NCBI GenBank assembly: GCA_045863295.1 | Contig: BTWA01000010.1 | Location: 96,001 to 160,000 of the forward strand | Origin: Candidatus Hydrogenedentota bacterium | Lineage (GTDB): Bacteria > Hydrogenedentota > Hydrogenedentia > Hydrogenedentales > SLHB01 | Length of the DNA: 64,000 bases | Reading direction: 5' to 3' | In this document: one piece after another, positions 10,161 to 12,463 of the stretch | Layout of the letters: the number at the start of each line of letters is the position of its first letter | Numbering within the stretch: the stretch's first letter is position 1 | Translations under genes and position numbers: made by a program | Notes under the pieces: model-generated | What the model saw: the letters and a program-made list of their open reading frames with translations, nothing else | Told to the model about the DNA's origin: nothing | Database searches by the model: none

Positions 10161-10751
10161 TCACACCATGCAGAACAAGAACACAATAACGGCCCACAAG
10201 AGCGCCGTGAAATTCCAAACCAACTTTGTGCACGCAAGACGATTGGCGTATGCGGCAGCGTCCGAGGAGGCTTGCGCGAATCCGGGTCCGGCGAGATAGA
10301 GGGTCCAAACCCAGGTTGCGAACGCATGGAGAATGGCTACGCCGCTGAACACGTAGAACAACGCGTGAAACGTGTCTGTGGACGGGGTGATGCCTTGCTG
10401 CCACAGCCGGAGTCCGGCGAACTTCATCAATCCGATGGCCGCGAATCCCAGCGCAATGACTATTGCCAGGTGCTTTCGCGCTTCCGGTGCGCGCGGATAT
10501 TGCATTGTCTTTGCGGCCTTTGCCATGAACACCCATACCAACGCCATAACGATTAACGTAATGAACATCAAACTTGCGGACAGCGTTTCCTTTCCGTCGG
10601 GCCAGTAATCGGCAGCCGTGCGCAGCAAGACATAACTTGATGCGAATGCGCTGCAGAACATGAACTCCGCCGCGAGGAAAAGCCATGTGCCCAGCTTGGC
10701 ATTGGTCATGCCCGTTTCCGGGCGCGGTGTGTTTGTGAAGGGCTGGGACAT
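10161..10751 (-). CDS. coxC: heme-copper oxidase subunit III (short form)
   Basis: GMTNAKLGTWLFLAAEFMF; C-terminal WNF...LW; TGATG overlap with subunit I. Confidence 0.85.
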   Translation of the reverse strand: MSQPFTNTPRPETGMTNAKLGTWLFLAAEFMFCSAFASSYVLLRTAADYWPDGKETLSASLMFITLIVMALVWVFMAKAAKTMQYPRAPEARKHLAIVIALGFAAIGLMKFAGLRLWQQGITPSTDTFHALFYVFSGVAILHAFATWVWTLYLAGPGFAQASSDAAAYANRLACTKLVWNFTALLWAVIVFLFCMV

Positions 10752-12463
10752 CACGAGGTCTCCGCACGCCATTGAGGCGTGAAATCCGAAGGCTGTCCCG
10801 GCGCGCTGTAGTCATAGGGTCCGCGGTGGGCGCGCAACTCAAGTTCGTTTTCGCCCGCCCATTCCATCGTGGTTGCGTCCCACGGGTTTTCGGCCGCTTT
10901 CTTGCCCCAGAACAGGCTGTATACAAAATTGATCACGAACGGCAACTGCACAATCGCCAGGGCAAACGCCGAATGGGTCGCGGCTTTGTTCAAGAAGAAT
11001 ACGTCTTGTCCGTGGGCATAGGTCATGCCGCCGTCATACAAGCGGCGCGACACGGCGCCGAGCCCTTGCACCATCATGGGCAGGAACACCATGTTCATGA
11101 AAAACAGCGTGGGCCAGAAGTGAATGCGGCCGAGCAAGTCGTTCATTCTGCGGCCGGTGACTCGTGGAAACCAGTAATAGATGCCCGCGAACAGGGCGAA
11201 CAACGTGCCCGGAGCGACAACATAGTGGAAGTGGCCGATTACATAGTACGTATCATGCAGCACGATATTCGTGGCGGACAAGGCCAATGGTATGCCTGTG
11301 AATCCGCCCATGGCGAACATGGGGAGAAACGCCAGTGCGAACAACATCGGCACGGTGAAACGGATGCTGCCGCCCCATAACGACACCACCAGCGACGTGG
11401 CCAGGATGATGGAGGGGATTGAAATGATGAGCGTTGTCGCTTGGAAGAACGCGTTCATGGCGGTGCCCATGCCGGTGAGATACATGTGGTGCGCCCACAC
11501 CAGCATCGACATCAATCCCATGAACTTCGCCGCCATGACCATGCCTTTGTATCCCCACAGCGGTTTGCGGGAATTGTTGGCGATGATTTCCGCCACGATT
11601 CCGAATGCGGGGAGAATCAGCACGTAGACTTCGGGATGCGCGAGAAACCAGAACAGATGCTGCCACAGCAAGGCGCTTCCCCCACCGGAGACCTCCAATT
11701 CGCGCCCACTCACAACCAGCCCGCTCGGCAGAAAGAAACTCGAGCCCGACACCCGATCCATGATTTGCAGCACCGCCGCTGCCGCGAGCGGTGGAAACGC
11801 CAGCAGCAGCAACACCGCCGCCACCAACTGCGACCATACAAAGAAAGGCAACCGCATGAAGTGCATGCCCGGCGCGCGAAGCTGTACAACCGTGACGATG
11901 AGATTGATGCTCAAGAGCAGGTTGGAAAGATAGACCAGGGCCATTCCGGCAAGCCAATATGTCTGGCCCGCGAGTTCGATTACCGACAGCGGGGGATAGC
12001 TGGTCCATCCGCTGTTGGCTGGCCCCAGTTCCGTGAAGAAACTGGAGAGAATGACGAATCCGCCGGCCACGTAGCACCAGAATCCAATCCGGCTTAAGCG
12101 GGGAAAGGCCATGTTCGCCGCGCCAATCATGAGGGGAACCAGATAGGTACCAAATGCGGCCACGGCCAGTGGCACCACGGCGAGGAACACCATCAAGGTG
12201 CCATGCATTGCGCCGAGTTGGTTGTAGAAGTTCGGCTGCATGACGCCCCCGGCCATGGTGGGATGATCGGGTCCGAACAGCCGGCCGGCCCCGGGAATGG
12301 GCTCGCCCGGATAGGCCAATTGCCAGCGCATGAGCAGCACCAGGCCGAACGCCAGGGCAAGAAACAGCAGCGCCGTCAGGGCATAGGCCACCCCGACCGC
12401 TTTGTGATCCGTGGAAAACAAGAGGCGCCATCCCCCGATGCCGCTCTTCGATGTGCTTGTCAC
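10751..12463 (-). CDS. coxA: heme-copper oxidase subunit I, A-family-like with degenerate proton channels
   Basis: STDHK, [33 protein letters not shown], SRR. The GTG start at 12463 is inferred. Confidence 0.95.
   Translation of the reverse strand: [570 protein letters not shown]

Follow-up and report, generated by a model that had tools for sequence, protein, structure and literature searches.

An A-family heme-copper oxidase of Hydrogenedentota without the key residues of either proton channel, and a possible single proton path involving subunit II

The window analysed here is a 64,000-nucleotide stretch of contig BTWA01000010.1 from an uncultured Candidatus Hydrogenedentota bacterium (assembly GCA_045863295.1), and our subject is an A-family heme-copper oxidase (HCO) encoded on its minus strand, in which the key residues of both proton channels known from textbooks are naturally gone while Glu286 and the catalytic centre are kept under strong purifying selection. 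Most mechanistic models of pumping in mitochondrial-type oxidases are built on these two channels, D and K, and above all on Asp132, Asn139 and Lys362, and single mutations at these three residues in model enzymes give crippled turnover or an uncoupled pump. With a probability of about one half, we take the operon to encode a working O2-reducing oxidase, fed with electrons by a cupredoxin through CuA, whose proton supply would have been rebuilt in two evolutionary steps so as to end with one channel and with pumping reduced or absent.

Relatives without Lys362 are called D-type below when Asp or Glu stands at D132 together with N121 and N139, and N-type when Asn, Gly or Ser stands at D132. Column counts refer to 66 rows of N-type and 144 of D-type; counted among the latter are L069, L082 and P0133, which are Lys-less and lie outside the family clade. 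Residues are numbered as in CoxI of the window; Rhodobacter sphaeroides (Rs) numbers, used for comparison, are those which we take to correspond to the printed Paracoccus denitrificans (Pd) numbers, with 8 added after loop I-II. The gene and its altered sites are the following.

10751..12505, minus strand: coxI, subunit I of an A-family HCO, Lys-less family, double-loss N-type (PF00115, PDB alignments)
12083..12148, minus strand: D-channel entrance, with Thr120 (N121), Asn131 (D132), Ser138 (N139), Arg139 (N140) and Gly141 (S142) (alignments, codons)
11912..11932, minus strand: upper D-channel in helix IV, with Tyr192 for Gly (66/66 N-type) and Leu198 for G204 (64 Leu and 2 Ile of 66); Ser194 and Asn201 kept (alignments)
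11591..11593, minus strand: Ala305 at the K-channel Ser site (S299 Rs, S291 Pd) (alignments)
11393..11413, minus strand: K-site in helix VIII, with Ser365 (T359), Leu368 (K362), Ala369, Thr370 and Ser371 (alignments)
11267..11269, minus strand: Asn413 at the D407 site (Pd D399), above the hemes and near the heme a3 propionates (Asn in 64/66 N-type, Asp in 142/144 D-type)

The coxI frame encodes 584 amino acids. It matched PF00115 with E=5.7e-127 in a Pfam scan, and scored 535.6 bits on the NCBIfam CtaD_CoxA equivalog TIGR02891, under the curated cut-off of 670.75. Its best PDB matches (phmmer against all PDB chains, 62 sequences) were A-type oxidases, with E=2.5e-102 for 1ar1_A of P. denitrificans. 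The alignment to this chain has zero gaps in the D-channel and helix VIII segments; one of the Paracoccus segments so aligned, with WAHHMY and WGGSI as anchors, is MTIAVPTGIKVFS. Thr120, Asn131, Ser138 and Gly141 align to Pd N113, D124, N131 and S134 (Rs N121, D132, N139 and S142), and Ser365 and Leu368 to Pd T351 and K354 (Rs T359 and K362). Asn131 is encoded by AAC at 12115-12113 and Leu368 by CTG at 11404-11402. A sequence-only reading made earlier by a model had listed N121T, D132N, N139S, S142G, T359S and K362L and had named these two codons; all of this was confirmed, and the gapless Paracoccus alignment restores neither Asp nor Lys. Further channel changes are S299 to Ala305, G198 to Tyr192, G204 to Leu198, S197 to Val191, S201 to Asn195 and D407 to Asn413, so that Val191, Tyr192, Asn195 and Leu198 replace Pd S189, G190, S193 and G196. 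From the D-channel set of a type A1 oxidase (entry Asp, gating Asn pair, Ser and Glu286), Glu292 is kept, whereas D132 is replaced by Asn, N121 by Thr, N139 by Ser, S142 by Gly and G204 by Leu. From the K-channel set, Lys is replaced by Leu368 and Ser by Ala305; the change of Thr to Ser365 is conservative, and the entry Glu, Glu69 of subunit II, is present in the window gene.

The same reading had described the rest of the catalytic core (His ligands, E286, Y288, W172, H411/D412 and an Arg pair) as intact, and the PDB alignment agrees: H101, H290, H339, H340, H425, H427, E292, Y294, W167, H417/D418 and R487/R488 are all present. The six His ligands of the low-spin heme, the high-spin heme and CuB, aligned to Paracoccus, are invariant in all N-type and D-type rows. 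So are Glu292 (E286) and Y294, the Tyr of HPEVY, which is predicted to form the covalent cross-link. In published work this Tyr cofactor is regarded as a requirement for O2 reduction, and nitric oxide reductases (NORs) are described as lacking it (PMC11214002). Since all parts held necessary are kept, including this Tyr, the enzyme should reduce O2.

A decaying or misassembled gene would be one rival explanation, and its probability is negligible. Contigs assembled from sludge in four other studies cover the two critical codons and show 0 differences from the window there (the Asn131 codon is covered by X7 record 22, the Leu368 codon by X2 record 6 and X5 record 13), which excludes an assembly artefact. 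Chance is excluded because 66 related sequences show these states again, and the metal ligands are invariant in 66/66 double-loss sequences. The ratio of non-synonymous to synonymous change (dN/dS, omega) was estimated in 210 pairwise Nei-Gojobori comparisons among 21 double-loss coxI genes; omega was 0.014-0.094 in the 8 pairs with dS<0.9, and 0.12-0.20 in pairs including the window coxI, which are near saturation (dS 1.2-2.1). The operon is moreover intact and translationally coupled, as had been claimed, with the stop of coxI overlapping the start of coxIII in TGATG at 10751-10753 and a 90-codon open reading frame (ORF) overlapping coxII in ATGA at 9869-9872, both read directly. The double loss is therefore lineage history and not decay, as the sequence-only reading had supposed when it argued for function and proposed a test by clade conservation and dN/dS. 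Within this gene, at window 11478-11481, contigs in runs X2 and X7 show an insertion and a deletion, each of 1 base, separated by 3 bases; these changes most likely belong to the conserved coxI of other organisms, because they lie on short, high-depth pieces running into unlike sequence.

The relatives place the two losses in order. In a word-indexed protein search giving 8000 candidates, the best 120 clusters, 63-100% identical, were typed: Lys was found at the K362 column in 0/120, with Ile, Leu, Val or Met instead, and 77 clusters were D-type and 43 N-type, the window's own protein included. An HMMER scan through all of 1.84 billion representatives and a tree of 142 rows put D-type and N-type together in a single clade, which is strongly supported and separate from the canonical A1 and A2 enzymes. 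A second tree, of 252 rows with the channel columns removed (FastTree, with SH-like (Shimodaira-Hasegawa-like) supports only and long-branch warnings for deep outliers), recovered the Lys-less family as one clade of 217 rows (support 100) and, nested among its D-type rows, an N-type clade of 67 rows (support 100). Because D-type states match the canonical N-D-N-S-G and N-type nests among D-type, the D-channel is ancestral in the family and its loss is derived. The alignment and tree that had been called for thus show same-site states shared across a supported clade. At least 7 changes of the acidic state at D132, and at least 3 of the Lys state, are needed on the 252-row tree.

In a scan of species-representative genomes, the best 80 of 587 confirmed stretches were classified. 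Among these 80, 51 loci were Lys-less with an acidic D132, in metagenome-assembled genomes labelled Verrucomicrobiota, Acidobacteriota/Vicinamibacteria, Neomarinimicrobiota, Planctomycetota, Ignavibacteriota and others, and the Lys-less family is widespread in these five phyla and in Hydrogenedentota. Another 24 were Lys-bearing, two (L069 and L082) were Lys-less loci inside the Lys-bearing group, two were N-type (L004 and L005, one labelled Hydrogenedentota) and one (L054) was another Asp-less form. The double-loss N-type subgroup has so far been met in Hydrogenedentota only. When 135 genomes of this phylum were searched and 47 loci read, N-type was found in 23 genomes and D-type in 13; several genomes hold two or three paralogs, and one, G111, has one N-type and one D-type gene. 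A third Asp-less form occurs in a few additional Hydrogenedentota genomes (L118, L119, L122, L128). It has the entry Asp changed to Gly and N139 to Thr or Ser, keeps G204 and, for the most part, D407, and has coxII directly after coxI; its D-channel loss is independent, because its origin lies inside the D-type clade. Some N-type coxI frames are 822-824 amino acids long (L095/L142, L101/L146; protein P0042 has 801), with an N-terminal extension of about 220 residues.

The columns of CoxI that separate the two types are listed here.

Column 126: D-type Gln, N-type Met
Column 131: D-type Asp, N-type Asn or Gly
Column 139: D-type Met, N-type Arg or Lys
Column 141: D-type Ser, N-type Gly
Column 192: D-type Ile, N-type Tyr (66/66)
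Column 198: D-type Gly, N-type Leu (64 Leu and 2 Ile of 66)
Column 241: D-type Glu or Gln, N-type Ala
Column 369, adjoining the old Lys site: D-type Leu, N-type Ala or Gly
Column 413: D-type Asp (142/144), N-type Asn (64/66)

In addition, position 371, Ala in D-type, is Ser in 53/66 N-type rows; the other non-overlapping columns are N-terminal or conservative. Since the fixed differences cluster at 131, 139, 141, 192, 198, 369 and 413, the split between the two types largely concerns proton-path residues. Helix VIII had already been altered in the family as a whole: compared with canonical enzymes, 5 of the 8 positions 365-372 differ (365, 366, 368, 370 and 372), the changes including Phe to Thr or Ser and Trp to Leu.

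A candidate replacement for Lys362 was found in subunit II.

9072..9872, minus strand: coxII, CuA site intact (PF00116 E=8.5e-09, PDB alignment, conservation)
9645..9647, minus strand: Glu76 codon of CoxII, an acidic residue in the middle of transmembrane (TM) helix 2 (acidic in 70/70 of the family versus 0/24 Lys-bearing)

The CuA ligands of CoxII (a His, Cys225, Cys229, His233 and Met236) align to Paracoccus and are conserved in relatives; Gln227 takes the place of the Mg-ligand Glu, and Gln is found there across the Lys-less family. A quinol oxidase of the bo3 or aa3-600 type is contradicted by this CuA site, and the CyoA and QoxA models cover the N-terminal TM part only, far under cut-off. 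The Glu76 column is acidic in all 70 Lys-less family CoxII sequences that could be extracted: Glu in 20/20 N-type, 41 Glu and 3 Asp among 44 D-type, 4/4 in the other Asp-less forms, and Glu in both of two unclassified family loci. In the 24 Lys-bearing enzymes the column holds Pro (16), Thr (7) or Val (1). At the Lys-less loci L069 and L082, CoxII has a Glu four positions later. The entry Glu of the K-channel (Pd E78) corresponds to Glu69, present in 9/20 N-type and 37/44 D-type CoxII. As Glu76 is 7 residues further on, that is two helical turns, it should share the entry Glu's side of the helix and lie about 10 Å deeper, if helix geometry holds. A simulation study describes the K-channel as beginning at subunit II Glu62 (bovine) and lists helix II of subunit II among the bounding helices (PMC6115622). 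Given an invariant Glu76, helix II as a wall of the K-channel and a remodelled helix VIII, we propose from these sequence comparisons that Lys362 may be replaced in trans by Glu76 of subunit II. The invariant Glu gives indirect support to an alternative proton path, one of the options that the sequence-only reading had raised.

Two other residues were considered as stand-ins within CoxI and rejected: Lys327 (helix VII), as a spatial substitute for Lys362, is Ile, Leu, Val or Met in relatives, and Asp33 beside His34, as a displaced D-channel carboxylate, is the same Asp in D-type and Lys-bearing neighbours.

The steps would then be as follows. In the first, family-wide, Ala took the place of the helix VI Ser and a hydrophobic residue (Ile, Leu, Val or Met) that of the helix VIII Lys, and at the same time TM helix 2 of subunit II gained, two turns above the entry Glu, its invariant Glu, which would take over as mid-channel protonatable group. 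In the second, in the one Hydrogenedentota subclade that includes the window gene, the entry Asp changed to Asn or Gly, the gating Asn pair to Thr and Ser, the cavity Gly pair to Tyr and Leu, and the Asp above the hemes to Asn, by which the D-channel would have been shut; the old Lys flanks received smaller and more polar residues (Leu to Ala or Gly, Ala to Ser). The residue states, their conservation, their order on the tree and purifying selection are established here, and the part given to Glu76, the closing of the channel and the pumping stoichiometry are predictions from them. All chemical protons would thereafter enter by a remodelled K-type path, with a functional likeness to the B- and C-families. 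This route for the chemical protons is in our view the most likely one; the N-type changes enlarge and polarise the K-site while filling the D-channel cavity. Bovine N98D, N98T and N98S variants, altered at the same Asn as N139, keep O2 reduction and lose pumping, and the B- and C-families, which have no active D-pathway, pump about 0.5 H+/e- (PMC12901375). By analogy with both, pumping is expected to be reduced or absent, and the non-pumping or weakly pumping oxidase offered as an option by the earlier reading is plausible.

Several observations weigh against this two-step scheme. The entry Glu is missing in 11/20 N-type CoxII. Glu76 is placed near the old Lys site by helix periodicity (+7 residues) and by a general description in a paper. 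The mid-TM2 Glu was absent from the CoxII of a separate Lys-less lineage of 8 loci (L152-L159, metagenome contigs, in which T359 is Phe and K362 is Ile, Leu or Met), where the alignment is weak; Lys loss as such needs no subunit II Glu, as this lineage shows none, and a general rule tying Lys loss to a mid-membrane Glu of subunit II is rejected by it and holds for the Lys-less family of the window only. Finally, N-type enzymes keep an invariant E286 plus Ser194, Ser/Asn195 and Asn201 of the upper D-channel, and the replacements in the lower D-channel (Thr, Asn, Ser) remain polar. The kept upper residues would be unexpected under full closure, and fit a neutral D-path that is still used.

The main rival, which we find doubtful though it deserves serious weight, starts from these last residues. 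A neutralised D-region (Thr120, Asn131, Ser138, Tyr192, Ser194, Asn195, Asn201) would still feed Glu292 for chemistry, pumping would be lost as in D132N and N139 mutants, and Glu76 of subunit II would be structural or minor. The invariant Tyr192 is protic, the other Lys-less lineage retains the D-channel only, and the active, non-pumping N98 variants cited above are what it would predict. Yet the entry carboxylate is lost, the cavity Gly beside the Glu (G204) is Leu in 64/66, and the coordinated K-site changes, Leu369 to Ala or Gly and Ala371 to Ser, are left unexplained. D132N alone leaves model enzymes with a few percent of activity.

Two other ways of supplying protons seem unlikely. A non-electrogenic scavenger would take its chemical protons from the periplasmic side (P-side), as cNOR does, and remove O2 with no charge separation. 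It would suit the loss of charged residues from both paths of the opposite side (N-side), as well as the P-side changes of the N-type enzymes, namely Glu177 (41/43), Asp413 to Asn, and a His/Asp in the loop I-II insertion; no conserved P-side acidic chain was identified, however, and Glu76 and in part Glu69 of subunit II are conserved on the N-side half. Marginally less likely again is full pumping by another route, such as an H-pathway-like network or a family-specific path lined with Gln. An H-pathway model of pumping has been argued for (PMC12901375), and the family has invariant intramembrane or near-membrane Gln residues that canonical enzymes lack (Q181, Q208, Q226, Q247, Q355, Q480, Q520); these are common to D-type, so they fail to explain the switch to N-type.

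The operon consists of five tightly spaced genes on the minus strand of window 9072-13267 (ORF list with translations). Besides coxI and coxII they are these.

12554..13267, minus strand: cupredoxin gene, 237 amino acids, secreted, operon gene 1 (AlphaFold2 model, Foldseek, Pfam)
10161..10751, minus strand: coxIII-like gene for a short subunit III (weak NCBIfam matches, junction read)
9869..10141, minus strand: membrane protein, 90 amino acids, with an A-C-x-x-C-x-G motif (conserved between coxIII and coxII in relatives)

The start of coxI itself is uncertain, TTG at 12505 and GTG at 12463 both being in frame; the earlier reading had ended the gene at 12463, and the in-frame GTG there was verified, with TTG also possible. 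The coxIII product gave weak NCBIfam matches to CyoC, QoxC and CtaE, every one under its cut-off. The 90-residue protein had no match in Pfam or NCBIfam scans; it carries a conserved A-C-x-x-C-x-G...D..Q motif and is always encoded directly before coxII in the Lys-less family (L004-L053, L132-L151). Might it be an extra subunit, or serve in copper or thiol handling?

The 237-residue protein was modelled by AlphaFold2 with a mean pLDDT (predicted local distance difference test) of 92, on an alignment of 42 sequences. The model matched amicyanin, plastocyanin, pseudoazurin and the cupredoxin domains of nitrite reductases with a Foldseek probability of 1.00 and TMt up to 0.75, and the ligands H125, C163, H166 and M169 are invariant in the 42 homologs. 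A CarboxypepD_reg match (E=1.4e-07; 32.2 bits, just under the cut-off of 32.3) was also found, and parts resembling the CarboxypepD_reg beta-sandwich flank the cupredoxin. By fold and ligands, this is a type-1 copper (cupredoxin) protein, with copper binding predicted, and it is likely the electron donor to CuA. Electrons would pass from this periplasmic blue-copper protein to CuA and on to the O2-reducing centre. Homologs of the gene lie upstream of D-type operons and, in other phyla, of ordinary Lys-bearing A-type operons, so the cupredoxin is not specific to the double loss.

Other oxidases are encoded in the same genome. Read by eye, these are an A2-type caa3 operon (YSHPAVY, Asp and Lys present, a cytochrome c tail on CoxII) and a separate, NOR-like HCO of 774 amino acids; heme A synthase on the caa3 contig and cytochrome bd were found as well. 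More widely, a canonical-type CoxI, 33-44% identical, was found with the window query in 20/23 N-type Hydrogenedentota genomes. Matching DNA datasets from several studies point to aerated sludge or bioreactors as habitat. The presence of other oxidases together with this habitat fits an accessory, condition-specific role for the N-type oxidase. For comparison, a D-type operon of a Neomarinimicrobiota genome (L013, 4293-11997), read by eye, has the order cupredoxin-ctaA-ctaB-coxI-coxIII-subunit IV-small TM-CxxC protein-coxII-Sco1-DUF420, a gene content as expected for a main aa3 oxidase, whereas the window operon is without ctaA, ctaB, subunit IV, Sco1 and DUF420.

A NOR or other N-oxide enzyme, the NO-related chemistry that had been listed as an option, is disfavoured by these data and is very unlikely. 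Both channels are lost as in cNOR and qNOR, the habitat is sludge or bioreactors, and a gene for a hybrid-cluster protein lies about 8 kb away. But in NOR families the Tyr cofactor is missing and the active site differs (FeB with Glu, or a changed His; PMC11214002), and the window enzyme keeps the cross-link Tyr as well as E286, CuA and the three His of CuB; a separate NOR-like HCO is encoded in the genome, and D-type sister operons carry ctaA, ctaB and Sco1 like aa3 oxidases. That 774-residue HCO (L003 650-3687, contig C23) has a long N-terminal extension, is qNOR-like by eye, and is followed by a gene for a 238-residue ScdA/RIC-like di-iron repair protein. The hybrid-cluster protein gene (Prismane family, E=1.1e-131) lies at window 1322-2623 on the minus strand, about 6.5 kb past the end of coxII and outside the operon; genes of this kind are usually linked to nitric oxide or hydroxylamine stress. 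At 6464-7450, also on the minus strand, a 328-residue ORF has many Cys/His pairs and no Pfam match at E<=1e-5.

Compared with A1-type aa3 oxidases (P. denitrificans 1AR1/1QLE, R. sphaeroides 1M56), the window enzyme has the same fold (E ~1e-102), cofactor ligands, HPEVY Glu and Tyr, CuA and Mg-site His/Asp. It differs by the absence of D132, N121, N139, S142, G204, K362 and S299, by insertions in CoxI loops I-II (~17 residues) and V-VI (12 residues), by the gene order I-III-small-II with a short subunit III, by its score below the CtaD equivalog cut-off, and by a subunit II in which Gln stands in for the Mg-ligand Glu and one more Glu lies in mid-membrane. The family-specific CoxI insertions (residues 71-87, 262-273 and 497-502; window ~12295-12243, 11722-11687 and 11017-11000) sit in two periplasmic loops (I-II, V-VI) and behind helix XI, hold conserved Gly, Pro and Ser, and are not found in canonical A-type enzymes. 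The D-type kin (such as L013) have CoxI 60-67% identical to that of the window, with the same insertions, gene order, subunit II Glu, cupredoxin and CxxC protein. They differ in retaining N121, D132, N139, S142, G204 and D407, and in the genes added in the L013 operon.

The proposed functional model is provided by ba3 and cbb3 oxidases, which have a single K-type path of Ser, Thr and Tyr, with a subunit II entry Glu in ba3, and the window enzyme most likely works like these B- and C-family oxidases. In sequence, by contrast, its CoxI is only marginally similar to them (E 1e-7 to 1e-9), keeps E286 and clusters inside family A; B-family membership is contradicted by ba3 chains matching at E ~1e-8 over the C-terminal half and by the retained helix VI Glu.

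Family-A COX1 proteins without the Lys and with the D-channel retained are already in print (Degli Esposti et al., bioRxiv 10.1101/2020.03.01.968255; PMC8239418), as the sequence-only reading had suspected; the authors call the Lys-less case rare and count seven losses in archaea. The Lys-less COX of acidophilic Fe(II)-oxidisers described there resembles the window enzyme in being hydrophobic at the helix VIII Lys and cupredoxin-associated. It is described as keeping the D-channel and losing the subunit II entry Glu, whereas the window gene has lost the D-channel too. The lineage L152-L159, in the other half of our tree, probably corresponds, by its sequence states, to these D-channel-only enzymes. 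Loss of the D-channel has also been placed in the transition from family A to family B, in Nitrosopumilus (cited in PMC11214002). The double loss, which the earlier reading had considered the notable part, was not found for family A in the literature searched, which left outside subscription papers and the preprint supplement (Figs S9-S11, Lys-less COX1) that may include family members. The same literature held no description of this bacterial Lys-less family or its invariant subunit II Glu, and no natural A-type enzyme from which the Asp/Asn set and the Lys are both missing and in which Glu286 is kept. Tentatively, and as something we consider possible rather than probable, the enzyme would be the first A-family oxidase from nature to work on a single channel spanning two subunits, with Lys replaced in trans by a buried Glu, the D-channel closed in a Hydrogenedentota subclade, and all protons, any pumped ones included, passing that way despite Glu286.

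The enzyme offers a natural test case for proton uptake and pumping in such oxidases. Matched natural variants that have the D-channel, some of them paralogs in the same genome, allow one to ask where the protons come from, whether Glu286 is of use when no D-channel leads to it, and whether loss of the D-channel trades coupling efficiency against O2 affinity, as proposed for the A-to-B transition. If the single channel across two subunits is real, the change from two channels to one has taken place repeatedly within the family, as the changes of the acidic D132 state would indicate, and paralogs with and without the D-channel would help to dissect the dependence of pumping on it. Lastly, several abundant uncultured phyla appear to have D-type members as their main aa3 oxidase, and the energy yield per O2 may be mis-estimated for those phyla when such enzymes are annotated as ordinary pumps.

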